A program made the position numbers and the translations under genes. The notes below the pieces were generated by a model. It saw only the letters and a list, made by a program, of their open reading frames with translations. It did not search any database and was not told where the DNA came from. Shown piece by piece: positions 1,661 to 20,000 of a stretch of 20,000 nt of DNA (positions are counted from its first letter, which is position 1; every line of letters starts with the position of its first letter). This DNA comes from Chiloscyllium plagiosum (lineage: Eukaryota), in NCBI RefSeq assembly GCF_004010195.1, contig NC_057718.1, positions 76,385,156 to 76,405,155 on the forward strand, given 5' to 3'.

Positions 1661-1833
1661 ATTCCCTGCCAGTAGCAGTGGTGGACTCTCCCTCTTTATG
1701 GGCATTTAAACGGGCATTGGGTAGGCATATGGAGGATAGTGGGCTAGTGGAGGTTAGGTGGGCTTGGATCGGCGCAACATCGAGGGCCAAAGGGCCTGTA
1801 CTGCGCTGTATTTTTCTATGTTCTATGTTCTAT
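1661..1833 (+). mobile_element. CR1/HER1 LINE extreme 3' end with (TTCTATG)n tail
   Basis: SLPVAVVDSPSLWAFKRALGRHM (ORF2 C-terminus), the 3'UTR motif GGGCCAAAGGGCCTGT and the tail TTCTATGTTCTATGTTCTAT; very similar to 17575-17636. Confidence 0.88.
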
Positions 1834-1879
1834 CTGATTAGGACCACTTAAACTGATTAGTGATACCCAAATCAGAACC

Positions 1880-2752
1880 AATCAAAATAAATGTCTAGTT
1901 AAATAGTCATCCAGTTCTAATGGCGGTCGATACTGGCTATGCCATAGCGGTGATTGCAGAATTTTAATAAAATTCGCTCTGGATCCCAGCCTTTACGTTT
2001 GTGCAAGATCTTGTCCAGGACAGAAAACATATACCGGTGATCCTTTGCTGATTAAATTTATAACTTTGATTCCAGTCTCTTATGAGAAGCAACTGGTTCA
2101 GTACCAGTGACTGGTTGCAAGAGATTCACCTAGATTGACTCAACATTTTTCAATTAGAAAATGGCTGCCTGAATGAAGTCCTAATTAAATACCTGGAAGT
2201 CTTCCAGGAAAGTCTAGGGACTATCAAAGGAACCAAAGGCCACCTTGTAGTTTGCCTAGGAAGCAATTCCATGATTCCACAAGTCCTACCCAGTGCCATT
2301 TACTTTACAGACAAAAGTAGAGACAGAAATGAGAAGCCTGGAAAATGAAGGAATCAAACCAGTCCAGTTTGCAAAATGAGCAACACTGGTCGTACCGATT
2401 TTGAATCCCAATGGGTCAGTCTACCTTTGTGGAGATTTTAGAGAAACGGGTAAGCTACTTTTTGCAGCTGGATAAATACCCAATCCCTCACATGGAGAAC
2501 TTAATGGCAGTGCTAGCAGGGGAACTGTACTTCACTAACCTGGACATGTGCCTTGCATACTTACAATTGCACTTGGGCAAAGATTCCCAGAAACATGCTA
2601 TAATTAATACCCATAAGGGCTTGTACCAATAAACGAGACTGCTATGTAGGTTATTGTCAGCCTGTGCAATTTTCCTTTGGATGACAATGAACATTTTGCA
2701 AGTTGTACCTCAGGTCACCATTTATCGAGATGACATTCTAATAACAGGAAAA
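1880..2752 (+). mobile_element. Decayed Ty3/Gypsy LTR-retrotransposon pol fragment (aspartic protease plus RT)
   Basis: Protease motif LMAVDTGYA (DTG at 1929-1937); RT VVPILNPNGSVYLCGDF, DKYPIPHMENL, FTNLDMCLAYLQ, INTHKGLYQ and YRDDILITG (YxDD at 2723-2734); several stops and frameshifts. Confidence 0.9.
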
Positions 2753-2772
2753 CAAATAAGAAGCAATTATAA

Positions 2773-2922
2773 GGCATCATGGCAACCCACAAACCCATCA
2801 ACACACTAAAACAGCAGCTAATTAACTTGAAAGACCCTATACAGACAACAAGCAAAACTCATGTCATGTAAAAAATACCGTGCAAGGATTGTAACAAACA
2901 CTACATTGGACAAACAGGCAGA
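2773..2922 (+). mobile_element. Penelope-like element GIY-YIG endonuclease fragment
   Basis: Translation GIMATHKPINTLKQQLINLKDPIQTTSKTHVM*KIPCKDCNKHYIGQTGR matches the PLE V(I/V)YKIPCxxC..YIGQTGR signature. Confidence 0.85.
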
Positions 2923-3093
2923 AATGCGCAGTTTAGTACTTATTGTTACTTTACCTACAAGAATAACTTATTTTCTTTATATGTTAATGTCCATCTATCC
3001 TTCAGTCTCCTCATGTGTTCAAATTCTACCCACACTGTGCTATTTATACTCAGTGAGTTGCAATTCCATGATATAGTTATACAGTTGCTTCAG

Positions 3094-3172
3094 GATCCTG
3101 AAGTCCTTGAAGAACAAAATGCTCTTTGTTCAACTCCTGGAGGAATTGCTGAAACTGGTACTGGGAAAAAAG
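3094..3172 (+). other. Candidate host exon (gene unidentified)
   Basis: TTGCTTCAG acceptor (alternative AG at 3083-3084) and a strong AAG/GTGAGT donor; two frames are open (ILKSLKNKMLFVQLLEELLKLVLGKK or DPEVLEEQNALCSTPGGIAETGTGKK); lies in apparently non-repetitive DNA. Confidence 0.33.
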
Positions 3173-3382
3173 GTGAGTCTAAATGTCCATGGGCCTGCGG
3201 GAGGCAGTTGCTGTAAGATTGAATTCCCAATGACTGATTTAAGAGAATTATGTAACATTTATTGTAAGAAGGAAACTAAAAGGACAACATAAACTACTGC
3301 AGGACAAGTGTGCCTTTAATTCTGGAGTAGAGTAGTGCTGGAAAAACACAGCAATTCAGGCAGCATCCAAGGAGTAGGAAAA

Positions 3383-3415
3383 CCCTACGTTTCGGACAAA
3401 AGCCCTTCATCAGGA
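3383..3415 (-). ncRNA. Minimal type I hammerhead ribozyme motif (Penelope type)
   Basis: Minus strand reads UC-CUGAUGA-A-GGGC-UUUU-GUCC-GAAA-CGUA-GG: both core boxes, a 4-bp stem II, a palindromic ACGU stem III and a GUA cleavage triplet. Confidence 0.72.
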
Positions 3416-3416
3416 C

Positions 3417-3450
3417 TCCTGATGAAGGGCTTTTGCTGGAAACATCGGAT
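3417..3450 (+). ncRNA. Degenerate minimal hammerhead ribozyme motif
   Basis: CUGAUGA (3419-3425)-A-GGGC-UUUU-GCUG-GAAA (3439-3442)-CAUC-GG; stems II and III are partly mutated. Confidence 0.55.
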
Positions 3451-5884
3451 TTTCCTGCTCCTCGGATGCTGCCTGAAATGCTGTGCTTTTCCAGCATCAC
3501 TCTACTCCAGAATCTGGTTTCCAGCATCTGCAGTCATTGTTTTTACGTAAGTGTGCCTTTAAGTCTATTAACATGACCAGTAATTCCCCAATCACATTCT
3601 ACATTACAGCATGTTCTCCACAGCTTACAGTTTTTAAAGGAAACAGTCCAAGTTCACTCCAAGTTTCTCATTTCCCAGCAGCTATCTCTTTATGGTCAGG
3701 ACCTTGAAAGGAGGCAGCACCTTTTGAGTTCTCCAGTACGCATGGCAGTTTCTAAGATATCTATTTAAGACCACCTAAATTTGGCATCAATGGTTAAATA
3801 TAATGAGTGCATTGTTGCAGTTGAAACATTTTCCATTGACAAACTCCATGCTTTGGTAATAGGATACTCTCTTCAGCTCAGCACCTTTCCTTTTGCTATA
3901 ACTTTAATTCAGAGAGCCTGCTGGATGTCAGATCAATTGCTTATTGTACTAGGGATTAGATGGATGGACAATGATGGAGTACTGGCATTATGAAAAATAA
4001 CATTGATTAAAGAATCATGAGGGAAGAGAACAACTAGCATGGATGCACTCTCACAGGAAATGCATCCATTGAAACAACCTGTAATCTCTAGATTTTTGTT
4101 TACAATGCAATAACATGTGCTTTATTGTTTAATAATAAAATTAAGAAAACACAAATAATAGAATAACTTAATAATTGCTCTTTATTTCCCTGAAAATTTA
4201 ATTGGGCAACATCAGTGTCTGCACAAATGTAAGTATCACAACCTTGGGAAAGGTCAACCTGGTATTGATGGAACTTATATGCTGCTAGCACAAAGTAAAG
4301 AAAGTCACTTAACTAAGAAGTATGTATTTTTGTAAGAATCAGTAAGATGCACCTTGTTGGATATTCATATTCAACTTGAAAACAGCAATCAATTTACCAC
4401 GACAGAATATCACATTACAAATGCTTCAACCACTGAATACTAGTTTTATTTTATAGCTATTTGCCTGTGTTCAACATGGGCATCAGCTGTAGTTTTGTTT
4501 TGTGAAGACAAAAGTAATTCAGTACTTATATTCTCCACCTTTTATTAAAATAAGCAAATCTATCACCAGAGTCTATATTCATATCTGTCCTTAAGGAAAT
4601 GAATGGAGAAATTATTCTTTTCTACCATGGTGCAATGGCGTTTCTAAAGTCCAATTCATAGCAGAGCCCTGAGGTACAACATGGGTTACTGTGAGTGGGA
4701 GAGAGGTGACCAGACTGTACAATTCTCATCTGTGTATTCCTCAGTTTCAATAATTTCAGATTATTTCCAACTTTGTCCACACGCCTCATATTGTGCCCAC
4801 TTCATGCTGTTTGAAGCAATCAGCTCATCCCTGACAGTAGCAGCTTGTTTCCTGGTGCATTTCCAGGATAGATGGCTAATAAATTGCCATACAAGATGCC
4901 AGGCATTTCTTCCATGCAAATTTAACACCCACCTATATAGTGAATATGCATTGACTTCCCGCACAATATCTATTACAGTTTTGCAGAACTTTAAATATTT
5001 CAGGCATTGGTAGAATTTCTAACATTTTACTAGTTGCATACATACCAAAGTCAAATCATTATTTTTTCTTGAGTACTTCAATAGACTATTTTTATATTTC
5101 AACATCTTTTGCAAATTTCTACACGTGCTATTAGATGAATGATGGTAGTTCTTATGTTTCCATGTTTTGAGACTATCATTGTTGTTTCGCTATGTGACTG
5201 ATGCTAGGCAATCTTTGGAGAGCTCTAACTGTGAGCATGGTGAGTAAAACCATTCATTATGATGTTGTGTATGCTTTTGAATCATATATTGTAATAAGTT
5301 ATTTAAATAACAGGCGGTTGGGCATACTTTTAAATATTTAAGTAATCAACTGTCCCTCAGAATCATTAAGCTTGGAGATCAGGAGGAATTCCTGCAACTC
5401 TTATTGATGTTGTATGATTATGTCAAAGATAAAAACCTTAGCCACAATGATCTTATGACTGAGCAGGGACACATTACATCAGCAATAACATGTCTTGAAT
5501 AAAGTAGATGTTAAATGTTATTGTCAATAGACATAGCATATAGCCACCTGCTGGAAGAGTGAGTTCTATTAATCTTTAAAATAGAATAACAATACTGGTA
5601 GCAGAAGTGTGTTCAATTGGAAATAAATGTGAGTTGCTGTATACTGCTGTGCTTCATGATTCAATCATTTAATTTCATATTGATCATTGAGTTCATTGTT
5701 GCTTAAAAGTCCATGTGTCATCGTTAATCTCAGATAGAAAGCAAAAGAAAAGTTTAGAAGTGTTAGATTGAAGCCAGTTTAATATACGTGTGAAAAAAAG
5801 GAACCAATTTTTTTTGTCAACATTACTTCTTTAGAAATACATCATTAAGTTAATATGAGCTGGACTGGCGCCATATAAATAAAC

Positions 5885-6030
5885 TAGCTTTTTCAGGAAT
5901 AAAGTTAGGAAATATTGTACACAGAGAGGATGATATAATTTTGCAACTCTGTTCTGCGAACAACTATTACAATTGCTCATTATAAATCTGAAATTTTATG
6001 AATCAAAGCTTTTAAGTGATAATAATTTAT
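5885..6030 (+). mobile_element. Very old CR1-like 3' remnant
   Basis: FRNKVRKYCTQRMI*FCNSV resembles the CR1 ORF2 C-terminal F..RK.FFTQRVV.LWNSLP motif. Confidence 0.35.
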
Positions 6031-6365
6031 ATCCCTGAGAACAAAAAGCTACACTTGGCAGCAAAAAAAAAGCCATGGGCAGGTAAAGAGATAAGGGGCA
6101 GCATAAAATGAAAAGAAAAGCCACAAACCAGAAAAAATCCTGTGGTATGGAAATGTACAAAGACCAGCAAAGCGCCACAAAGCAGCTTTTTAGAGCAACT
6201 AAAAGGGTCTATGAAAGGAAACTTGCCAGACACATCAAAATCAGTGGGAAGACATCTTATAGTTACATAAAGGGAAAATGACTTGGAGGTGCCAGTGTTG
6301 GACTGGGGTGGACAAAGTTAAAAATCACACATACCAGGTTATAGTCCAAAAGGTTTATTTGGAAG

Positions 6366-6399
6366 TACTAGCTTTCGGAGCACTGTTCCTTCATCAGGT
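6366..6399 (-). ncRNA. Minimal type I hammerhead ribozyme motif
   Basis: Minus strand reads AC-CUGAUGA-A-GGAAC-AGU-GCUCC-GAAA-GCUA-GU: stem II with one mismatch, palindromic AGCU stem III, CUA cleavage triplet and AC/GU stem I. Confidence 0.7.
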
Positions 6400-6588
6400 G
6401 GTTGTGGATCATGCTCACAGAATTTATAGCCAAAGGAGTCGTGTCATGGAGATGTGATATAGTAAACAATCTTAGATTAAAACTATCATCTTTTATAATG
6501 GGATATGCTGGTTTCTGTTCTTTGATATATAAATCCCAGAACGACTTTCAACTTACATTGTCAAGATAATTCAGCTTTTTACACAATA

Positions 6589-6885
6589 GGGCGGTACAGT
6601 GGTTAGCACTGCTGCCTCACAGCGCCAGAGACCTGGGTTCAATTCCTGACTCAGGCAACTGTCTGTTTGCACATTCTCCCCGTGTCTGCGTGGGTTTCCT
6701 CCGGGTGCTCCGGTTTTGTCCCACAGTCCAAAAATGTGCAGGTTAGGTGAACTGGCCATGCCAAATTGCCCATAGTGTTAAGTGAAGGGGTAAATGTAGG
6801 GGAATGGGTTTGGGTGGGTTGCTCTTTGGAGGGTCGGTGTAGACTTGTTGGGCTAAAGGGCCTGTTTCCACACTGGAAGTAGTCT
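6589..6885 (+). mobile_element. HE1-like tRNA-derived V-SINE
   Basis: Head GGGCGGTACAGTGGTTAGCACTG, B box GGTTCAATTCC (6636-6646), V-domain TTTGCACATTCTCCCCGTGTCTGCGTGGGTTTCCTCCGGGTGCTCCGG, LINE-derived tail GGGCTAAAGGGCCTGTTTCCACACTG; CAATA TSD at 6584-6588 and 6886-6890. Confidence 0.92.
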
Positions 6886-7904
6886 CAATAAGTGTGAAGT
6901 CTGTCTGTGTCCCAATGCTATGTCAGACTGACAAACCCTCTGCGTAGTTTTATACAGAAAATGGGTGGTCAAGAACAGTGTTATCTCGCTAAAGACTGAA
7001 AGTTGGATATTCTCAAAGACAATATATTGAACAATTACTTTGTCCTAGTATTTACAGTAGAAAAGGAAGGTAAATTGCCAGAACTCCTGCAGAAATTAGT
7101 AGTGCATCAGGAGCAAGGACTGAATAAAATTAACGTAAGTAAAACATCAGAAATGAGAAAATTAATGAAATTAAAGAGTGACAAATCCCTGACACTTGAT
7201 ATTTTGACATTTTCCATCTGAGGATGTTAAAGAAAGTAGAGGAGCACATTCTAGATACCCTAACTATAATCTTCCATTATTCCTATGGAGATGTCGCTCT
7301 GGATTGGAAAATTGCACGTCACTCTGCTTTTTAAGAAGTGCCATAGAGAAAAACCAGGGATTTACAGATCAATTGGTTGGGAAATTGTGGGGAGTGCATA
7401 ATCAAGGATGGTTCTTAGAGGCTGGGACATTGTCAGATGCCAATGTCCATGGACATATTGTTAGTGCTCACAGAGTTTGCCCTAAGATGCTGGTATCCAG
7501 TGTTGTTCGGAGCAAGAGGTAAGTTGGATCCACCAGTGCTCACTCTGGTTTCCTCACTGAGGTCTCCCAGCATCGAGCTTGCTTGGTGAGTTTGGTAAGG
7601 TGGGAGGCTGAATATTAATGAGGCAGTTGTGTTGTTAACAAGGCACTTAGCAAGCCACAGTCAACATCATTTGGCAATTTGTCATTGCTTAGTGAAAATC
7701 TCACCACGTGATTTGTGAAAAGCATAAGAGATGGCACGAGTTGCTCCCAATATTGAGATGGGTATGGCTGTGCTCGTCACTCAGTTCTACCACACGTCTT
7801 ACCATGGCCCACATCGCTCAGACATACCCCTGCTTGGATTTTCTTCCTACTGACTTTTCCAGATTTGCTGAATTGTTCCATTTACTTCAATTTTTATTTT
7901 AGAC

Positions 7905-8013
7905 AGCCAGCAGCATTTCCTTTTGCAATAGTACACTTCAAAAGTGTTTAATTGACTGAAGGTCTTTGAGTCATATGAGAATGTGCAAATTTTATATAAG
8001 AGCACTTTTTTTT
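7905..8013 (+). mobile_element. Ancient SINE 3' tail remnant (AmnSINE1/SINE3-like)
   Basis: TACACTTCAAAAGTG...ATTGACTG...TTTGAG...TATATAAG...TTTTT resembles, from recall, the Deu-SINE tail ACTACACTTCAAAAGTAC...CTATATAAATGCAAG. Confidence 0.4.
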
Positions 8014-8954
8014 AAGAAGCTGAACTATGGTACAGAGGGTTGAGAGAAACATGATTATTATATCAGACTGCTGATGTCATACTATACTGATGGCTTCAGC
8101 AAGTTGTCAGTCATTACAAAATATTTCAGATCAGCTTACAATATCTAAGCTTACAATGTGAATGAATTTCCAAAATAAGTTGGTTGATTTACCACTGAAT
8201 GGCGATCGCTATCTCTGCTAGCCAGTCTCAGCATCATTCAGAGATGTAGAAATTGAGCACAAACTATTTGACTTTGCAATCTAATTGAACTGTGAATTTC
8301 TAATGAGTCAATTACTTCAAGTAGTTACCATTCAAACCTTGGAGTTACTCCATCAGCAAAATAAGAGGCATTTACCTTCCACTTGTAGGAGGCATGCAAA
8401 GTAACAGCTATCTTGATGTTCTAGGTGTCCAATTCCAACAACAAAATTTACTTTTTAATCCATGACCCCTGTGAATTACTGAAAATTCTTGTGTGATCTG
8501 GCAGCATATGTGGAGAGAAAAATAGTTCGTCATTCTCTGAAAAAATGGGGAATAGTTAAGGGAGACAACAGGAATCAAACTCACCACAGAGACAGGGTTA
8601 GTGAGATCACCATGCCACTCCCAATAGGGAAAGCCTGACTTACCAAGCGCAACTCAAGCACCTAGCTAGACAGCAGAGGGAGACCAAGGACCCCAGGGGT
8701 GGAATTCTCATCCACCAAATCTACTTGCCAATTAGAGATACAGCTCTCTGTGAGCTACAGTACCCCTAGGAGGTACTCCTAGTATGATACCTACCTGAAG
8801 CTTAGGATCATTGCTGGATTCCTAGGCACAGATGAGAGATGATGCGGAATCTTTAGGTGTGAGTTGCAGGTGAGGGGCGGTGAAAATAAGGGTGTGAGTG
8901 GCTCCAGGGGTGCAGTCCTGAGAGAGTATGTTCCAAATAGTCCAATTGGGGAAG

Positions 8955-11760
8955 TAGCCATATTAGGCCTGGTATTGGGGAATGATCAGGTGATCAGTGG
9001 GAGAGCATCTCTGGAACAGTGACCATAATTCTTTAAGTTTTAAGATACTTATGGATAAAGATAAGAGTAGTCCTCAGATGAAAGTACTCAATAGGGGGAA
9101 GACTAACCAACACAATATTGGACAGGAACTGGGGAATGTAGATTAGGGACAACTGCTTGAGGGTAAATCTAGATATGGCATGTGGGAATCTTTTAAAGGT
9201 CAGTTAATTAGAGTTCAAGACCAGCATGTTCCTGTGAAAATGAAGGATAATGATGGCAAGATTCTGGACCTTGGATGACAAGAGAAATTCAGAGTTTAGT
9301 CAAAGAGAATAAGTAGGCTATACATAAAGTTTAGGAAACTGAAGACAGACAGAGCCCTTGAAGAATAGAAAGATAGCAGGAGTCAACTCAAATAAAGAAT
9401 TAGGAGGGCTAAAAGCATAAAATGTTTTTGGCAAACAGGATTAAGGAAGATCTTAATGCATTTTATACATTTACAAGGAGCAAGAGGATTACTATGGAAA
9501 GGGTAAGTCCACTCAAGGATAAAGGAAGGAATTTGTGCGTGATGCCAGAGGAAGTGGGTGAGGTCCTTAACAAATGCTTTGCATCAGTATTCGCAAAGGA
9601 GAAAAACGTGGTTGATGGTGAGTCCTGGGAGGAATATGTTGATATTCTATGGCATGTCAGTATAACAAAAGATGTAGGGTGTTATGAAAAGCATTAAAGT
9701 AGACAATCTGGTGGGATCCATACCACAATGCTGAGGAGGATAGGTGAGGAAATTGCCAGGGCTTTGTACAAAATCTTTGTATCCTCTTTAGCGTTCCCAG
9801 ATAACTGGAAAATAGTCAATGCTTTTCCGTTGTTTAAGAAGGGAAACAGGGATAATCTAGGATTTTACAGGCCGGTGAGCCTTATGTCAGTGAAAGAATT
9901 ATCGGAGAAGATTCATAGGGATAGTTACATTTGGAAAAATATGGATTTATTGATACTAAGCAGCATGGTATTGTGAGGGGAAGATCATGTTTCACAAACA
10001 GTTTATGACTGTTTTGAAGAAGTGACAAAGATGATTAATGAGGGTGGGCTGCAGATGTTATCTGTATGGATTTTAGTGAGGCCTTTAACAAGTTCCTCCA
10101 TGGTTGGCTGATCCAAAAGGTGAAATCACATGAGATCTGCAGTGAGCAGGTAAAATGGATACACAACTGGCTTGGTCGTAGAATTCAGAGAGTAGCAATG
10201 GCAGGATGACTTCCTGATCTGTGACCAGTTGTGTTCCACAGGGATTAGTACTTGGATCCTTGTTGTTTATAAAATGTATAAATGAGTTAGAGAAGAATTT
10301 CGATGGCCTGATTAGTAATTTTGCAGATGACACAAAAGTTGGGGAGCTGCGGATAGTGAGGAGGATTGCCAGAGGATACAGCAAGATATAGATAGGCTGG
10401 AGGCTTGGGCAGAGAAATGACAGATGGGGTTTAATCCGGACAAATGCGAGGTGATGTATTTTGGAAAATCTAATGCAGGAGGGAAGTCGACAGTAGCATC
10501 AACATTCAGAGGGATCTAGGCATACAGGTCCACAATTCGCTGGAAATGGCAACACATGTGGATAAAGTGGTTAAGAAGGTAAATGGAGTTGAGAGGTCAT
10601 GTTGCGGCTGTACAGGACATTGGTTAGGCCACATTTGGAATATTGCCTGCAATTCTGGTCTCCTTCCTATCGGAAAGATGTTGTGAAACTTGAAAGGGTT
10701 CGGAAAAGATTTGAGCTACAGGGAGCGGCTGAACAGGCTGGGGCTATTTTTCCTGGAGCGTCAGAGGCTGAGGGGTGACCTTATAGAGGTTTACAAAATT
10801 ATGAGGTGCATGGATAGGATAAATAGACACATTCTGTTCCCTGGGATCGGGGAGTCCAGAACTAGAGTGCATAGATTTAGGGTGAGAGGGGAAAGATATA
10901 AAAGAGACCTAAGGGGTGGTATGTGTATGGAATGAGATGGTAGAGGATGTGGTGGAGGCTGGTACAATTGCAACATTCGAGAGGCATTTGGATAGGTATA
11001 TGAATAGGAAGGGTTTGGAGGGATTTGGGCCGGGTGCTGGCAGGTGGGACTAGATTGGGTTGGGATATCTGGTCGGCATGGACGGGTTGGACCGAAGGGT
11101 CTGTTTCCATGCTGTACATCTCTATGACTCTATGCCATCATCAGTCAAGGCATAGACAGTCAAAAATGGCAACTCATTTGCAACTGTAGATACCTTTAGT
11201 AAGGCCATGTTTGGAATATTTCATTTAGTTTTGATCGCCACAGTACCAGAAGGATGTGGAGGCTTTGGAGATAATGCAGAAACAGTTTACCAGGATGCTG
11301 CCGATTTTGGACAGTATTAGCTATGAGGAGAAATCAGGAAAACTTGGTTTGTTTTGTCTTGAATGTCAGAGGCTGAGGGGAAATCTGATGGAAGTGTACA
11401 CAATTATGAGAGGCATGCATAGTTGGAGTTCTTCTTCCCAGGGTAGAAATGTCAATTACTAGAAAACATGGGTTTATATTAAAAGGGGTGCAGGGTGGTG
11501 AGTTTAATGGAAATGTGAAAGGCAAATTTTCTACACAGAGGGTGAAAAGTGCCTGGAATGTGCTTCCAGAGAAGCTGGTAGAAGCAGAAACAATAGCAAA
11601 ATTAAAGAGGCATCTTGACACATATATGAACAGGCAAGGAGTAGAGGCATATGAACTGTGCAGAGGCAAAGATTTTTAGTTTAGAAAGACATCACGTGTC
11701 GGCGAACGTTGGGGCCAATGAACCTGTTCTTGTGTTTTACTGTTTTTTGCTGTGCTTTGC
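8955..11760 (+). mobile_element. Decayed 5'-truncated CR1 LINE (end of EN domain, RT, 3'UTR), interrupted at about 10583-11134
   Basis: AILGLVLGN...SDHN (EN end); LANRIKEDLNAFY; WKIVNAFPLFKKGNRDNLGFYRPVSL; MDFSEAFNKFLH; VPQGLVLG; FADDTK; CQRLRGNL; STQRVKSAWNVLP; degenerate 3'UTR. Confidence 0.93.
10583..11134 (+). mobile_element. Younger CR1/HER1 3' fragment nested in the older CR1
   Basis: [53 protein letters not shown], 3'UTR GGACCGAAGGGTCTGTTTCC and a CTCTATGACTCTATG tail; duplicates the region the host encodes at about 11160-11750. Confidence 0.9.
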
Positions 11761-11764
11761 TGTT

Positions 11765-12200
11765 TGAGTAATTCACCTCCTGATTCCCTAAAGATTGTTC
11801 ACCAGCCACAAGGCACATGTCAGGATGTGATGGCATGCACACTCAGTAGCAGCTCTGTGTACTGTCTGCAAGATACACTGGAGGAATTCACCTAAAATCC
11901 TTAAACAGCACTTTTCAAACCCATGACCACTTCCATCCAGAAGGACAAGGGCAGCAGACACATGGGAACATCACTATCTTCAAGTTCCCATCCAAGCCAC
12001 TCACCATCCTGATTGGAAATACATTGTTATTTCTGCACTGTTATTGGATCAAATTTATTTAACTCCTTCTCTAGTAGCCCAGGTATTGCAGGTTGACAAC
12101 AGCCTAATTTAGCATTTTAAGAAGACAGCTCACCACCACCTAATCAAGATAATAAATGCTGGGCCAGGCCAGTGATGCTCACCTATGGTAAGTGAATTAA
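11765..12200 (+). mobile_element. L2-like LINE 3' fragment (internally deleted)
   Basis: HLLIP*RLFTSHKAHVR-like coding remnant and AGAAGGACAAGGGCAGCAG...AAGACAGCTCACCACCACC; ends AATAAATGCTGGGCC...GATGCTCAC...GTGAAT, a tail shared with the SINE at 17884-17928. Confidence 0.68.
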
Positions 12201-12312
12201 TGTCAAACATTCTTACATATTTCATGTTTGACAGCAGCTGTCAAGTGGTTGCCAGGAACTTTAAATGTCAGAATATGATAATATGACTGCTTTGAAAAGG
12301 GGAAGTGCCACT

Positions 12313-12935
12313 TGTTACAGACTAGACAAATCCCCCCTCCCCCCTTCAAATGCATCAGGAGATAGACAAACCTTAACTTTTTCTTATTTAGAGGCAGGTG
12401 TAAGGTGTTGTGTTCCAGATCTAATTCAATTTGGTCAAGCTATTCAGCTATGAGCAAAACACACTTTATTTCTATTCCACAGTTAAAATACAAAAAAAAG
12501 AAAAATTGGTCTAACAGAATAATAGATTATTTAACTCAGAAACAGCAACTGTTCCAACATTGTTACTTCCCATAAAAACACACTTGGCAAAGGCAACTTG
12601 AGTAAAATAGATTGTCTCACATGTACTTTTTCTCCAGTCCTGGAGGAAAGAACATCAAGAGAAAATACTGGCAGAGACAGAGAACTCAAGCATTTTGCTG
12701 TAGCAAGGAGAGATGTATGGCAGCTTCCAAGCCCAACAACTACAGAAAGCTAAACTAAAACCCTGGTTCTGTGGGAGCCTGAAACCACCCATTAATGCTG
12801 CCTGTATTGTTCCAACTTAAAAACAAACAAGCTGTTTACTCTATTGTTTTGGACCAGGTAGCTTGATACCTACGGTTCAAACCTTCTCTTAAAAAAAGGA
12901 TAAGATGCACCTCTTAAAGCCATAATATCATCACA
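12313..12935 (-). mobile_element. Putative solo LTR
   Basis: TGTTA...TCACA termini (TG..CA, imperfect inverted ends), flanks CACT and CAAT (4-bp TSD with one mismatch), AATAAA on the minus strand near 12465-12470, no coding signal. Confidence 0.45.
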
Positions 12936-13309
12936 CAATTCCTGGAAAACGTGCTCCAGTACTTTACAGTTGGTGAAAACTTTTAAAGTGCACTCATTCT
13001 TGCTGTGTAGGCAATTTTCACAGCCCACTTGTACACACCACACACTGAACTTATTGCCTGTGTTGGTGACATTGACACTGGGTTAGAAAGCAGGGGCCAC
13101 TCTATCAGGACCCCTAATCCAATTCTATATCAACAAGCAACTACCTTTTTACCTAAACGTTTAAATGTTGGAGTGAAGGCATTGGCTTGCCTGCTCTAAG
13201 AGTTTAAGGATAATAAGCCCATCATTAATTGACCATTAATTGGCCAATTCAGGGAATTCTTGGTCAGGTGATTGCCCCACCATACAATACTGGTGCCTGC
13301 CAGCCATTT

Positions 13310-13755
13310 TTTCTGAATTCTTCCTATAGCAGGGTGAACAGAATTATACACAGTAATCCAAATTTGGCCTTACCAATATTTTGTACAGCCACAATATGAC
13401 ATCCCAACTTTTGCACTCAGTGCCCTGACCAATGATGACAAGCGTGTCAAACAACTTCATCACCACCCTTTCCATGCGATGCTACTTTTAAGGAACAGTG
13501 CATCCCTAGGTCTCTCTGTTCGACAATACTCCCCAGGGCCCTAACCTGCCCTGTGCAAGTCCTTCCCTAGTTTATCTTAACAAATTGCATTATCTCATAT
13601 TTATCGGAATAACCTCTATCTGCCATTCCTTGGTCCATTGGCCTAGTTGGTGAAGATCCTATTGTACTCTTATATAACCTTCTTTACTTTCCACTATACA
13701 CCAATTTTGGTGCCATCTGTAAACCTACTAACCGAATCTCCTATATTCCTATAAG
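13310..13755 (-). mobile_element. CR1 LINE RT C-terminal fragment
   Basis: Minus strand VSRFTDGTKIG (FADD equivalent), LQWTKEWQ and VILWLYKILVRPNLDYCV*FCSPCYRK. Confidence 0.85.
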
Positions 13756-15415
13756 TGCATTTGATCGGATTTAGTTTCAATTTCAGTCAAACTCTTGAAC
13801 AAGTCTTATTACTGTACTGTCTCTTTAGACTGAAATTAATAATTCATCACAGACTTATTGCTGAAACTCCTTCACATTTTCAATAAGATGAATTTTAAAA
13901 GCACTTTCAGTCCATCACCGGAGTTGTGTGTTCTAATTCCTGAAATGTCAGAAATCTTTCTTGGAACTGTTAGATGTTTAGATTTTCAGATAATTCAAAA
14001 CTAGGCCCCATGAGCTTTCTGATGAACACAAAGGTGGCGCTTTGAACATACCAAGTAGTAATTCATGCAGCAACCCAATTATATACAGATTGTTACAAAA
14101 TGTGAGACTGTATGGTGAAGGTCCAAAGTAAATTGTTAATTAGTTGTTTCAAAGTATTTAGTATATTGAACAAGTCAGTTCTTTATGGAACAGGAAATTT
14201 ATTCAATCAGTAAGGGCCTCTGCTTGTTAGATCGTGAACATCAGTGGAACATTAAGTTAAGGAGTCAGGCAGTTCAAGCTGTCTGTTATTCATTGAAATG
14301 TTGCAGTTTCAAAAATGCATTCCATGTGTTTTTTTTAAAAAATGCACATAAGTAACAAGATATGCAAGGAATTTGTTGCAGAGTTTTATAGCAAAATGTA
14401 GGAGAAAACTTCAGTTATTTAGTTAGCTCAAGACACCTTCATGGACATACAAATGTTATGTGTACTTTCTTTGATTGCAACTTTCTGCACAATTTATTAC
14501 TTTGCAATACTCCATGAGTTAAATTTCAGTTAACTTTGTGGGATACCACAATATGAAGGTATATTTGTGGCTTGATTGGATAGCTGCAGATTGATTGTCA
14601 GGGAGAAGTGAAGTCTCCGTTAATGGAATTGCTCAACAATACTTGGGCCTTTGAAAATGAACCTAGTTTCCAAATGTGTTATGTAACCTCGCTTTCTGAG
14701 AATATTGGATCGTCTCTTTGTTTCTCTGGGCATTGTGTGTCTACAAATGCATTGTGAGACACCTCTCTTTTTACTAGACCTTTAGTCTCTAGCATCTCTT
14801 GTTTATCCTTATCCTATGCTTTCTCACTGTTCAGCTCTACAACATTTTATCTATACTTGTGTATGTACAGTTTACGAAGCACAACCCTCTAGTGTGGGGT
14901 ATTACCCATCCTCCATTGCCTGCTTCTCTCTGCTCTGCTTTTTCCAGAGTAACAGAGCTATCCTTTGCATATTGCATTATGCTATATCTATCTCTGAACT
15001 TCTCTTTTACATGATTTACATAAATCCAGCAATTTATTTAACTATTTCCCTTGTCATTGTTAGCATTAACATGATTATCATCATTTACCCTCTTAAGGTC
15101 TGACTCTGAAATAATGAGATGCTTTAGAACTCTGATTGCTTGCCCTTGCTTTCCACATAAGGGTGATGTTTCTCTATTTTGTGTAGGATGTTTGTCTGTG
15201 TTCCACATTCTGTGGTAATCATACTTCTTGGCTCAAGTAAGATCACTGCCTTCCAGTTTCTCTTGAACAGTCTATTAAATATGTGTGGTATATGAAATAT
15301 ATTAAGTATATATCATGTGTACACCAGATATGATCATGGTGATCTGTTCCTTTAAGAAACGTTGCCTCTACCTGACTGTTTATTATCCACGCTTCCTAAC
15401 TTGGTGGCAAAGTAA

Positions 15416-15610
15416 ATATTTTAAGTTTAATCAAGAGTCTTATCTTCAAAAAACATATAATCAAGAAAGAACACACTGTACTCACTAATACAGCCTTTCT
15501 CTTGGATAGACTTAAAACAACAATTAACTTATCTGATTCTGTGCTGTTTACTTCACCCAACAGTTCCTCCAAGATTAGTTGTGAATTTCACTGTTTGTTA
15601 ATTTTCCCAG
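15416..15610 (-). repeat. Inverted 195-bp copy of the LINE 5'UTR at 18116-18310
   Basis: Reverse complement aligns without gaps and with 2 mismatches; the identical peptide in ORFs 15502+ and 18066- reflects this. Confidence 0.96.
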
Positions 15611-15689
15611 CAGTAAAATCCCTTCATCAGGAGTACAGGTTAACCACTCAGGAGTCACCCAGTCTTCTGTCCATGGGTGTCCCCTATTT

Positions 15690-16660
15690 TATTTTCTGCA
15701 ATAACCTTTACAGTGGCACCTTATCAAATGTTATCTGGAAATCCTTGAGTACACTACATCCACCTGTTTCCCTTCAACCAAAACATATGTTATTTCCTCC
15801 ATGATAGTCAATAAATTTATTAAATATGATTTATTTCTCACAAAACCATGCTGTGCTTGATTAACTTTGAATATATCCAAGTGCCCTGCTTTAACAATCG
15901 TTTCTAACATTTTCAATATGACAGATGGTAAGCTAACTGGCTTATAGTTTCTCCCTTTCTGTCTCCCTTCCTTTTTGAATAAAACAATTATATTCATTAT
16001 TTTCTAATCCCAATCTAATGAGACCATCCCCAAATTATGGAGATTTTGGAAAATTATTACTAATACAAAAAGTAACTCACTACCTATTTCTTTTAAGATC
16101 TTATGATGAAGTCCACTAGGGCCCAAGCACTCACCAGTCGATAGCTCTAACAATTTATCAATATTACTTCTTTGGTGATTGTGATTGTGATTGTGATTTT
16201 CCTGAGTTTGACCACCTTTTGCATTTCCTGATTTTGTTGCTGTTTCTGGGATGTTACTTACATCCACTATATTGAAGACTGATAGAAAACATCTGTTCAA
16301 TCCCCCTGTCATTTCAATATTTTCCATTATTAATCCTCCAGTCTGACCTTCTCTTGAACTAGCATTCATATTGTTAACTTCTTTAGATGCAAATTAATAT
16401 AGATTATTCAGAATCTCATTAACTAAATATAAATAATTATAGAAACTCTTACTGTCTGTTTTTATATTTCTAACTAGCTTTCTCTCATTCTCACAATATT
16501 TCTCTTGTATTTTTCCATCTTTGTAAATTTTATTGGGTCATTCTTTGCTTTTTTTATATTCTGTCCACTCTTCTGACCTGCTTTCTGTCTTTGCACAATT
16601 ATATGCCTTTTCATTGAGTTTGATACTATCTTTAACATTTCTATTTAACTCCGGGATGAA
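15690..16660 (-). mobile_element. Old CR1 LINE ORF2 fragment
   Basis: Minus strand KDSIKLNEKAYNCAK, LNRCFLSVF, LGPSGLHHKILKEI, LFKKEGRQKGRNYKPVSL, QHGFVRNKSYLINL and DFQITFDKVPL. Confidence 0.88.
16175..16198. repeat. (GTGATT)4 microsatellite
   Basis: GTGATTGTGATTGTGATTGTGATT. Confidence 0.85.
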
Positions 16661-17636
16661 TGAGCCAAATTGATAGGGTTGTTAAGAAGGCGTATAATGT
16701 GTTGCTTTTATTAGCAGGGGAATTGCGTTTAAGAGCTACGATGTTATGCTGGAGCTCCATAGAGCTCTTGTTAGACCATACTTGGAATATTGTTGATCAG
16801 TTCTGGTTGCCTCATTATAGGAAGAATGTTGAAGCTTCAGAAAAGGTGCAGAGGAGATTTATCAGGATACTGCCTGGACTGGAGGGCATGTTTTGATTAG
16901 ATTACTTACAGTGTGGAAACAGGCCCTTCGGTCCAACAAGTCCACACCAACCCTCCGAAGACCAACCCACCTAGACCCATTCCTCTACATTTACCCCTTC
17001 ACCTAACACTACGGGCAATTTAGCATGGCCAATTCACCTAACCTGCGCATTTTTGGACTGTGGGAGGAAACCGGAGCATCCGGAGGAAACCCACGCAGAC
17101 ACGGGGAGAATGTGCAAACTCCACACAGACAGTTGCTTGAAACAGGAATTGAACCCAGGTCTCTGGCCCTGTGAGACAGCAGTGCTAACCACTGCCACTG
17201 TGCCACCATGCCGCCGTGTCTTATGAAGAAAAGTTGAGGGAGCTGGGGCTTTTCTCATTGGAGCAAAGAAGAATGAGAGGTGACTTGATAGAGGTGTACA
17301 AGATGTTGAGAGGCATAGATAGAGTGGATAGTCAGAGACTTTTTTCCCATGGCGGAAATGTCTATCACAAGGGGGCAAAACTTTAAGCTAATTGGAGGAA
17401 GGTTTAGGGGAGATGTCAGAGGTAAGTCCTTTACGCAGAGAGTGGTGGGTGCATGGAATGCACTGCGGGCGGTAGTAGTAGAATCAGACATATTAGAGAC
17501 ATTTAAGCAACTCTTGGATAGGCACATGGAAGATAGTACAATGAAGGGTATGTAGATTAGTCTGATCTTAGAATAGGCCGGCACAACATTGAGGGCCAAA
17601 GGGCCTGTACTGTGTTGTACTGTTCTATGTTCTATG
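16660..17636 (+). mobile_element. CR1/HER1 3' fragment with (TTCTATG)n tail, interrupted by an HE1 SINE
   Basis: IDRVVKKAY...QFWLPHYRKNVEASEKVQRRFIRILPGLEGM resumes after the SINE as [23 protein letters not shown]...FTQRVVGAWNAL; tail TTCTATGTTCTATG. Confidence 0.92.
16895..17215 (-). mobile_element. HE1-like tRNA-derived V-SINE
   Basis: Reverse complement has the head GGCGGCATGGTGGCACAGTGG, B box GGTTCAATTCC, the V-domain and a TAATCTAATC tail; homologous to 6589-6885; imperfect TSD ATGTTT/GTGTCT. Confidence 0.92.
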
Positions 17637-17932
17637 ACCCGGATAATGTTCTGAGGACCCTGGTTCAAATCCCACCATAGCAGATGGTGGAATTTGAATT
17701 CAATAAATATCTCGAACTAAAGAGTCTAGTGATGACCATGAATCCATTGTCGATTGTCAGAAGAACCCATCTGGTTCACTGACGACCTTTAGTTGGTCTT
17801 AGCTGGTCCGGTGTACATGTGACTCCAGACCTACAGCAATGTGGTTGATTCTTAAATGCCCTCCGGGCAATTAGGGATGGGCAATAAATGCTGCCTGGAT
17901 AGCGATGCCCTCATCCTGTGAATGAATAAAGA
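17637..17932 (+). mobile_element. SacSINE1-like Deu-SINE, 5' head truncated
   Basis: B box GGTTCAAATCCC, central AACCCATCTGGTTCACTG...ACATGTGACTCCAGACC...AATGTGGTTGA and tail GGGCAATTAGGGATGGGCAATAAATGCTG...GAATGAATAAA. Confidence 0.78.
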
Positions 17933-18031
17933 AGAAAGGAAGATTCAAATTCAAATCCAAATCCATGTAATCCTGTGGCCATATCTTTGTAATGACTACC
18001 AGGTCATACATGGTGAGGACAGTGCAGGAGG

Positions 18032-18051
18032 GAGAGAGAGAGAGAGAGAGA
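18032..18051. repeat. (GA)10 microsatellite
   Basis: Direct reading. Confidence 0.9.
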
Positions 18052-18402
18052 ACCAACCTGCACAGTTACTGCCTTTGCTGTTTGAATTCATGTATCGCTG
18101 GACATCGGAGTGCATCTGGGAAAATTAACAAACAGTGAAATTCACAACTAATCTTGGAGGAACTGTTGGGTGAAGTAAACAGCACAGAATCAGATAAGTT
18201 AATTGTTGTTTTAAGTCTGTCCAAGAGAAAGGCTGTATTAGTGAGTACAGTGTGTTCTTTCTTGATTATATGTTTTTTGAAGATAAGTCTCTTGATTAAA
18301 CTTAAAATATAAGCCACAGCTATTAACTTAACCTGGGGCAGTGTTTTGTAGAGGAATAAAACGGTGTTATTTTTTGGGTCTGTAGATTGTGAAGGAGCAA
18401 AA

Positions 18403-19317
18403 ATGGCCTTTGCAGTGATATGTACTTCTTGTCAGATGTGGGAGTTTAAAGAGAGTTTAAGGGTTGCTGCGGATTATATCTGCCATAAATGCTGTTGGAT
18501 GCGAATCTTATCAGATTAAGTGGATCAGTTGGAGAGACAGATAGAAACAATGAGGAATTTGCAACAGCAACAGTATGTGATGGATGGCAGTTATAGGAAG
18601 GGGGGAAAGTCTCAGATACAGTCACATAGATGGGTTAACTCCAGGAAGGGTAAGAGAGGTAGGCAGCTAGTGCAGGAGTCTTTTGTGGATATACCCATTT
18701 CAAACAGGTAAGCTGTTTTGGAAAATGTAGGTTGTGATGGATTCTCAGGGGAACGTAGCATGAACAGCCAAGTTTCTGGTATTGAGACTGACTCTAATGC
18801 AACGAGGGGTCAATTGTGTTAGGGGATTCTGTAGTCAGAGGTACAGACAGACGTTTCTGTGGCCAGCAGAGAAAAAGCAGAATGGTGTGTTGCTTCCCTG
18901 GTGCCAGGATCAAGGATGTCTCAGAGAGGGTGCAGAATGTTCTCACGGGGGAGAGGGGCCAGCAGGAGGTCATTGTACACATTGGAACCAACGACATAGG
19001 AAGGGAAAACGTTGAGATTCTGAAGGGACATTGCAGAGAGTTAGGCAGAAATTTAAAAAAGGAGGTCCTCAACGGTAGTAATATCTGGATTACTCCCAGT
19101 GCTATGAGCTTGTGAGGGCAGGAATAGGAGGATAGAGCAGATGAATGCATGGCTGAGGAGCTGGTATATGGGAGAAGGATTCACATTTTTGGATCATTGG
19201 AATCTCTTTTGGGGTAGAAGTGATCTGTACAAGAAGGATGAATTGCATCTAAATTGGAAGGGGACTAACATACTGGCAAGGAAATTTGCTAGAACTGCTT
19301 GGGAGGATTTAAACTAG
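18403..19317 (+). pseudogene. CR1 ORF1p: CxxC..CxxC zinc knuckle, coiled coil and SGNH/GDSL esterase (disrupted)
   Basis: MAFAVICTSCQMW...YICHKC...DQLERQIETMRNLQ; GDS (18822-18830), PGAR, HIGTND and DELH (19237-19248); stops at 18517, 18709 and 19106; frameshifts near 18810 and 19060. Confidence 0.9.
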
Positions 19318-19424
19318 TAAGGTGGGGGGGTGGGACCCACGGAGATAGAGAGGCAAGAGATCGATCTGAGACGGGTACAGCTGAGAATAGAAGTGAGTCA
19401 AATAGTCAGGGCAGGCAGGGCAGG

Positions 19425-20000
19425 CAGGACTAATAGATTAAACTGCATTTATTTCAATGCAAGGGGCCTAACAGGGAAGGCCGATGAACTCAGGGCATGG
19501 TTAACAACATGGGACTGGGATATCATAGCAGTTACAGAAACATGGTTCAGGGATGGGCAGGACTGGCAGCTTAATGTTCCAGGATACAAATGCTACAGGA
19601 AGGATAGAAAGGGAGGCAAGAGAGGAGGGGGAGTGGCATTTTTGATAAGGGATAGCATTACATCTGTGCTGAGGGAGGATACCCCTGGAAATACATCCGG
19701 GGAAGTTATTTAGGTGGAACTGAGAAATAGGAAAGGGATGATCACCTTATTGGGATGTATTATAGACTCCCCAATAGTCAGAGGGAAATTGAGAAACAAA
19801 CTTGTAAGGAGATCTCAGCTATCTGTAAGAATAATAGGGTAGTTATGGTAGGGGATTTTAACTTTCCAAACATTGACTGGGATTGCCATAGTGTTAAAGG
19901 TTTAGATGGAGAGGAATTTCTTAAGTGTGTACAAGACAATTTTCTGATTCAGTATGTTGATGTACCTACGAGAGAAGGTGCAAAACATGACCTACTCTTG
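19425..20000 (+). pseudogene. CR1 ORF2p apurinic-like (APE) endonuclease domain (disrupted)
   Basis: CIYFNARGL, DIIAVTETW, YRKDR..KRGGGVA, YYRLP, MVGDFNFPNIDW and PTREGA; TAG at 19711 and a frameshift near 19755. Confidence 0.93.

Follow-up and report, generated by a model that had tools for sequence, protein, structure and literature searches.

A 229-bp fold-back insert with opposed minimal hammerhead motifs as a probable insertion of a Penelope-like element

Introduction

A 229-bp insert in the stretch of DNA analysed here (20,000 nucleotides; in the following, the window) forms a long hairpin with a hammerhead core on each strand and is enclosed by a TSD. It raises the question of whether such a fold-back is a mobile unit in its own right or the product of the insertion of another retroelement. 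A preliminary description had left the choice between an ambisense, retrozyme-like family and a one-off fold-back product of a Penelope-type reverse transcriptase. Our analysis argues that the insert is very probably a tiny insertion of an EN+ Penelope-like element (PLE), in which two 5'-truncated, hammerhead-bearing terminal-repeat ends stand head to head within the TSD. The head-to-head layout is a pattern that has already been described for Penelope-like elements. The locus by itself is of minor importance, being one aged copy of a repeat that is very abundant. As a class, ORF-less head-to-head stubs represent PLE insertion in its simplest form. Whether PLEs transpose by two-strand priming or by self-priming is an open question, which could be addressed through the letters at the junctions of such stubs, the offsets of their tails and the lengths of their TSDs. 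In shark genomes, the stubs moreover give rise to long dsRNA hairpins and to spurious 'novel ribozyme' calls.

Results

Structure of the insert

The insert and its boundaries comprise the following features, given by window position and strand; the assignments to a PLE are putative.

3306..3319, plus strand: left TSD copy, 14 bp, identical to 3549-3562
3320..3415, minus strand: inverted, tail-less PLE terminal-repeat (pLTR) end, 88% complementary to 3417-3513
3416, no strand: C, the single nucleotide at which the two 5'-truncated ends meet; relatives mostly carry A or T
3417..3513, plus strand: pLTR end in direct orientation, a copy of the one in the inverted arm as judged by arm complementarity
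3514..3548, plus strand: one-sided PLE tail, 35 nt, with the 3' end of the family; relatives leave behind 3546
3549..3562, plus strand: right TSD copy, 14 bp, matching the left copy in 14 of 14 positions
3379..3420, minus strand: minimal type I hammerhead, C3 at 3413, by comparison with the available parts of the min-HHR description in PMC4209133
3412..3453, plus strand: damaged minimal type I hammerhead, C3 at 3419; relatives mostly carry C at 3438

The perfect 14-bp TSD of the preliminary description was recovered, and its two copies are the only exact 14-mers repeated at a spacing of 150-400 nt within window positions 1701-20000. The TSD encloses both arms, in line with the single, non-coding insertion event that had been proposed. 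The inverted arms (3319-3415 and 3417-3513) are 97 nt long each and show 12 mismatches around the centre C3416. The previously described arm length and 1-nt centre thus hold, except that the first base of the left arm, 3319, is also the last base of the TSD, leaving 96 nt of this arm inside the 229-bp insert; the two terminal-repeat stubs accordingly measure 132 nt (with the tail) and 96 nt. The tail had been described as a 35-bp unpaired stretch, and its 35 nt match the 30-40 bp known for PLE tails. Folded as a hairpin, the insert has an MFE of -148.9 kcal/mol (z = -17.7), and none of 200 shuffled sequences folded equally well. Half of the arm mismatches (six of 12) do fall into positions 3436-3449, as had been pointed out, but this clustering is borderline (simulation p 0.049, with the interval picked post hoc) and no signal is claimed from it. 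Similarly, the perfect complementarity of the innermost 19 bp of the arms (chance p ~0.06) is not taken as a signal.

Opposed hammerhead motifs

On both strands, CUGAUGA (from 3419 on the plus strand and from 3413 on the minus strand) is combined with one extra A between positions 9 and 10.1, a 4-bp helix II and GAAA, after which a two-base step leads to U16.1-H17. The earlier claim of a hammerhead core on each strand is thereby borne out. According to the parts of Cervera and De la Pena (2014, PMC4209133) available to us, the min-HHRs of metazoan PLEs have three hallmarks: one additional nucleotide between 9 and 10.1, pairing of G10.1-C11.1, and a palindrome at 15.2-16.2. As far as this portion of the source goes, the anatomy agrees with the suggested minimal type I class: CUGANGA, GAAA and the extra nucleotide are present in both arms, and G10.1-C11.1 and the palindromic 15.2-16.2 are present in the minus arm and lacking in the plus arm. 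The minus-strand hammerhead has an intact G10.1-C11.1 pair, an intact helix III palindrome and an A as residue 17 (3386); its helix I is weak, with one mismatch and three G-U pairs among seven positions, and takes bases from across the centre. On the plus strand, the G10.1-C11.1 pair is lost through a G at 11.1 (3438), and helix III is no longer palindromic owing to an A at 16.2 (3444). Opposite-strand pairs are known for the min-HHRs of Schistosoma as well; in the accessible text of PMC4209133 these lie 100-700 bp apart, compared to 5 nt here, and the Schistosoma families have a helix II of 7-8 bp, compared to 4 bp here. Unlike the min-HHRs described in the parts of PMC4209133 at hand, the plus-strand copy is damaged, and these parts contain no shark example. 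A comparison of the window with Rfam at E values up to 1 yielded no hammerhead match; the two matches obtained were weak and unrelated.

In the full hairpin, both cores are predicted to be paired with a probability >0.99, and opening one core is predicted to cost 33-36 kcal/mol, which supports the previous suggestion that a dsRNA hairpin would mask the ribozymes. The available part of PMC4209133 reports that a single metazoan min-HHR did not cleave in vitro and that dimers cleaved at a low level. For the insert, a dimer hammerhead fold would be impossible in cis, because there is one ribozyme per strand only. Judging from the loss of G10.1-C11.1 on the plus strand and from the predicted burial of both cores in the hairpin, the insert copy is unlikely to cleave. 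The predicted cleavage site (3446) lies ~30 nt downstream of the junction, so that junction and cleavage site differ.

Two further stretches of the window resemble the element in part. A solo terminal-repeat stub of a second family (6278-6410, minus strand) carries its own minimal hammerhead with C3 at 6397 and a palindromic helix III; it has no clear TSD and shares just 11 core letters with the element at 3306..3562. A 24-nt match to centre and core of the element is found at 15611-15634. It adjoins one copy (15416-15610) of a 195-nt inverted duplicate whose other copy (18116-18310), 99% identical, lies 2.5 kb apart; the duplicate is located upstream of LINE-like sequence at 18400-20000.

Relatives at other loci

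Relatives of the element were surveyed by comparing window positions 2940-3900 to contigs of DNA runs from three organisms (A, B and C) at 80% likeness, and 31,031, 33,502 and 39,258 contigs per run matched. The survey covered four of 24 listed runs, these three and one RNA run; the latter gave 0 reads, a count that carries no weight for or against expression. Depth was ~14-33 in the unique flank versus 5e5-1.2e7 in the inner bins of the element, with the maximum at 3468-3500; these depths and the centre/flank ratios of 6,072-9,983 are not copy numbers and support 'many loci' only. The element is a highly abundant repeat that occurs at many loci in the three organisms. A short stretch close by (3006-3071) is moderately repeated, with a depth of 800-2,500 versus ~18 in the flank.

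Behind 3546, 394, 487 and 590 contigs depart into unrelated letters (agreement 0.35-0.37), so that the family's 3' terminus and the TSD boundary are no more than 2 nt apart. Alignments of relatives stop at 3335/3336, the mirror position of ~3497, and three of the 24 contig pieces listed start exactly at 3417. At position 3416, A and T together account for 85-93% of the depth among relatives in the three runs, and the letters aligned there reach up to 28-35 nt from the contig end. Fold-backs over the same centre position exist at other loci in all three organisms. Among the 24 pieces listed, ten that belong to other loci or variants extend over the centre. They contain 0-9 gap letters, and all of them lack the 31 letters on each side that were set as the measure of bridging; part of the A/T depth at the centre may stem from single arms that extend a few native bases past it. 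A second centre, 6 nt shorter, was found in 8, 13 and 5 contigs, where it makes up 0.5-3.4% of depth. When doubled, the centre depth corresponds to ~18-22% of the arm depth 20 nt away, and by this rough comparison single-arm relatives appear to outnumber fold-backs. Opposite-strand joints run from 3500 to 3546 in 11-15 contigs per run and from 3504 to 3546 in 5-10 contigs per run; these tail-to-tail joints amount to 0.17-0.52% of the centre depth. A discrete family would call for an invariant centre and invariant ends with distinct TSDs. The relatives show a dominant centre and a common 3' end, but the second centre recurs, and the contigs do not resolve whole copies with their TSDs. Since fold-backs with the same centre recur at other loci in three organisms, the insertion is not the one-off event that had been considered.

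Age and decay

Contigs from each of the three organisms extend out of either unique flank into the element and reach 23-47 letters beyond the TSD. The flank-crossing pieces differ from the window in 5 of 806, 11 of 781 and 27 of 712 letters, respectively, and no empty-site joint is present among the 15 joints listed for the three organisms (237 more are unlisted). Because the element occupies the same site in all three, the insertion is older than the split of A, B and C. In organism C, the left TSD has a substituted base at 3306 and has lost 2 nt at 3308.

The divergence between the arms is 12 of 97 positions (95% interval 6.6-20.6%). Judged by the majority letters of the relatives, positions 3437, 3438, 3444 and 3497 have changed in the right arm and positions 3396, 3386, 3383 and 3375 in the left arm; as to the remaining mismatches, one has changed in both arms (3478/3354) and three lack a clear polarity. 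This distribution is compatible with neutral decay of the two arms. The arms have an additional G near 3447 and A3477 in common, where most relatives read otherwise (C in 65-81% of depth), indicating that both arms come from one template lineage. The insert copy is probably old and dead.

Discussion

The Penelope-type origin suggested by the preliminary description agrees with published PLE insertions in layout, tail and hammerhead. In the available parts of Arkhipova et al. (2013, PMC3846280), PLE inserts are completed by an adjacent inverted pLTR, one pLTR carries a 31-bp tail and the TSDs are 8-10 bp long; head-to-head is given there as the commonest PLE arrangement, and self-priming was proposed as its cause. 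Similarly, the portion of Craig et al. (2021, PMC8557442) at hand describes an inverted, 5'-truncated PLE copy and a tail of 30-40 bp, often at one end only. With these complex insertions of EN+ PLEs, as far as the accessible text of both papers describes them, the present insert shares the head-to-head, 5'-truncated inverted copy, the one-sided tail (35 nt), the hammerhead in the terminal repeat and the enclosing TSD (14 bp). Unlike them, it is devoid of any ORF and consists of 132 + 96 nt of terminal repeat; its TSD of 14 bp compares to 8-10 bp in the rotifer examples in the available part of PMC3846280, and its junction is located 2-3 nt upstream of the hammerhead core, a position that differs from those in the published EN+ PLE insertions within the parts of the literature accessible to us.

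For PAc, a Poseidon PLE of Anolis, it has been demonstrated that the purified protein nicks and extends both target strands, that reverse transcription begins at two sites bracketing the tail, and that hammerhead cleavage is dispensable (Frangieh et al. 2024, PMC11167929). The insert resembles PAc in that its tail would correspond to the interval between two RT start sites and in its AT-rich target ends, and nicking and extension of both strands as in PAc would give the layout seen here (PMC11167929). The main text on PAc does not describe head-to-head products.

The following assembly might be proposed. A PLE protein would nick the two target strands 14 nt apart, giving rise to the 14-bp TSD. 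One primer would initiate copying at the tail end and its counterpart at an inner start site, the two sites on the RNA bracketing the tail. Both reverse transcripts would halt at a favoured position located a few bases upstream of the hammerhead core. Joining of the two cDNA ends would follow, and the mirror half would thus be built during insertion. Within the PLE explanation, we consider the chances of priming from both nicks to be about even; self-priming or snap-back is a possible but less probable route, and other routes are unlikely. Hairpin loops require about 3 nt, and the 1-nt spacer between perfect arms is therefore too tight for intramolecular snap-back, which favours two separately made strands. 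The junction that is 6 nt shorter is neutral in this respect, as it can be drawn as a 3-bp snap-back or as an annealing of two ends. The strict one-sidedness of the tail is left unexplained by the in vitro result for PAc, where RT start sites are alike on both strands (PMC11167929). There is somewhat less than an even chance that the mini-insertions, which number in the thousands, have arisen in vivo by priming from both nicks; if this is true, PLE second-strand synthesis would be testable from genome statistics. Twin priming is a term from LINE-1 work, and no paper tying it to PLEs was found by title or abstract.

Three other origins have to be weighed against the head-to-head PLE insertion. 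Improbable, although it fares best among them, is a discrete non-autonomous family in which the whole ambisense double-hammerhead fold-back would be transcribed and re-inserted by PLE enzymes in a retrozyme-like fashion. A single centre position dominates in three organisms, as a fixed master hairpin would have it, and joints such as the opposite-strand ones at 3500/3504-3546 would be expected from tandem units or circle junctions; moreover, retrozymes are reported as derivatives of PLE terminal repeats in the part of a preprint available to us (bioRxiv 10.64898/2026.07.22.740005). However, these joints are rare relative to the centre depth and are also compatible with tail-to-tail PLE insertions, the second centre recurs, and the centre-crossing pieces contain gap letters, the places of which are not given. 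By the rough depth comparison, about four fifths of the arm depth is not accounted for by the dominant centre. In addition, a template of ~97-bp dsRNA is predicted to bury both hammerhead cores, and each strand has one ribozyme without a same-sense partner. In the accessible portions of the literature, non-LTR retrozymes are same-sense tandem repeats expressed as circles (Cervera and de la Pena 2020, PMC7229834; Li et al. 2026, bioRxiv 10.64898/2026.07.22.740005; PMC6155905). The insert is similar to the retrozymes in the available parts of PMC7229834 and bioRxiv 10.64898/2026.07.22.740005 in being non-coding, in its type I hammerhead, in its kinship to PLE terminal repeats and in its longer TSD. 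Whereas the same-sense tandems of retrozymes, as these parts describe them, lead to circular RNA, the insert comprises one inverted pair of minimal ribozymes without a tandem: there is one core per strand, and the unit occurs only once in the window. No description of a hairpin-type retrozyme was found in the literature searched. Given the single ribozyme per strand, the second centre and the rarity of the tail-to-tail joints, the ambisense family put forward in the preliminary description is weakly supported at best. If the fold-back were nevertheless mobile, it would represent a hairpin-type retrozyme, and the rare tail-to-tail joints would be tandem or circular junctions.

It is more improbable still that a single pLTR stub was inserted first and that the inverted arm was added later by a host DNA event such as a template switch or repair. 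The perfectly paired innermost part of the arms could reflect repair or conversion, but both arms lie exactly within the TSD, other loci show the same centre again and the asymmetry of the insert equals the known PLE tail length; the contigs also suggest many fold-backs with the TSD outside the arms and a constant tail offset. The least probable origin is a MITE-type DNA transposon with long inverted repeats that would derive by chance from a PLE end: the insert is short, non-coding, palindromic and high-copy, but its ends are asymmetric with the 35-nt tail on one side only, single-arm relatives appear commoner than fold-backs in the rough depth comparison, and we know of no common cut-and-paste superfamily that the 14-bp TSD would fit.

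Further searches were directed towards the parent of the PLE insertion and towards look-alikes. To link the arm to an autonomous PLE protein, one of its reading frames (3418-3546) was used in two protein searches, which gave no hits. Scanning metagenomes for the hammerhead motif revealed one locus (L001, 1146-1211, GC 38%) on a coral-like contig, where a minimal hammerhead core that is almost the same stands next to a partial copy in inverted orientation; neither a TSD nor an RT match was found at this locus, which was judged an analogue instead of a copy of the insert. This analogue and the other PLE debris near the insert speak for the PLE explanation. Two scans of viral contigs for the motif yielded none in either case. 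Among prokaryote genomes, two loci were obtained (L002, 1501-1526, minus strand; L003, 1501-1526, plus strand), which may be bacterial hammerheads as judged by sequence; they were set aside as relatives, as they match in the motif only and have a GC of 64-65%. A scan for bacterial promoters and terminators, which is inapplicable to a eukaryotic locus, returned nothing. No description of the present shark family was found in the open literature searched.

Surroundings of the insert

Upstream of the insert, a Penelope-type GIY-YIG endonuclease fragment (2773-2922, plus strand) contains one stop codon and shares 80% identity with P0001, an RT protein from a shark, over 50 aa; a Pfam search with this fragment gave one weak, irrelevant match only. 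By its sequence, the fragment supports a PLE-rich, shark-like host; it is at most a candidate for the parent of the insert. The adjoining decayed RT-like fragment (~2200-2760) presumably resembles an LTR retrotransposon. A 79-nt exon-like stretch with two open frames (3095-3173, plus strand), preceded by AG and followed by GTGAGT, lies ~130 nt upstream of the insert, and a Pfam search with four fragments near the insert, this stretch included, returned no family. The window further contains a minisatellite with units of 25-27 nt (368-1670) and two SINE-like copies in opposite orientation (6597-6885 and 16899-17194) that are 89% identical.
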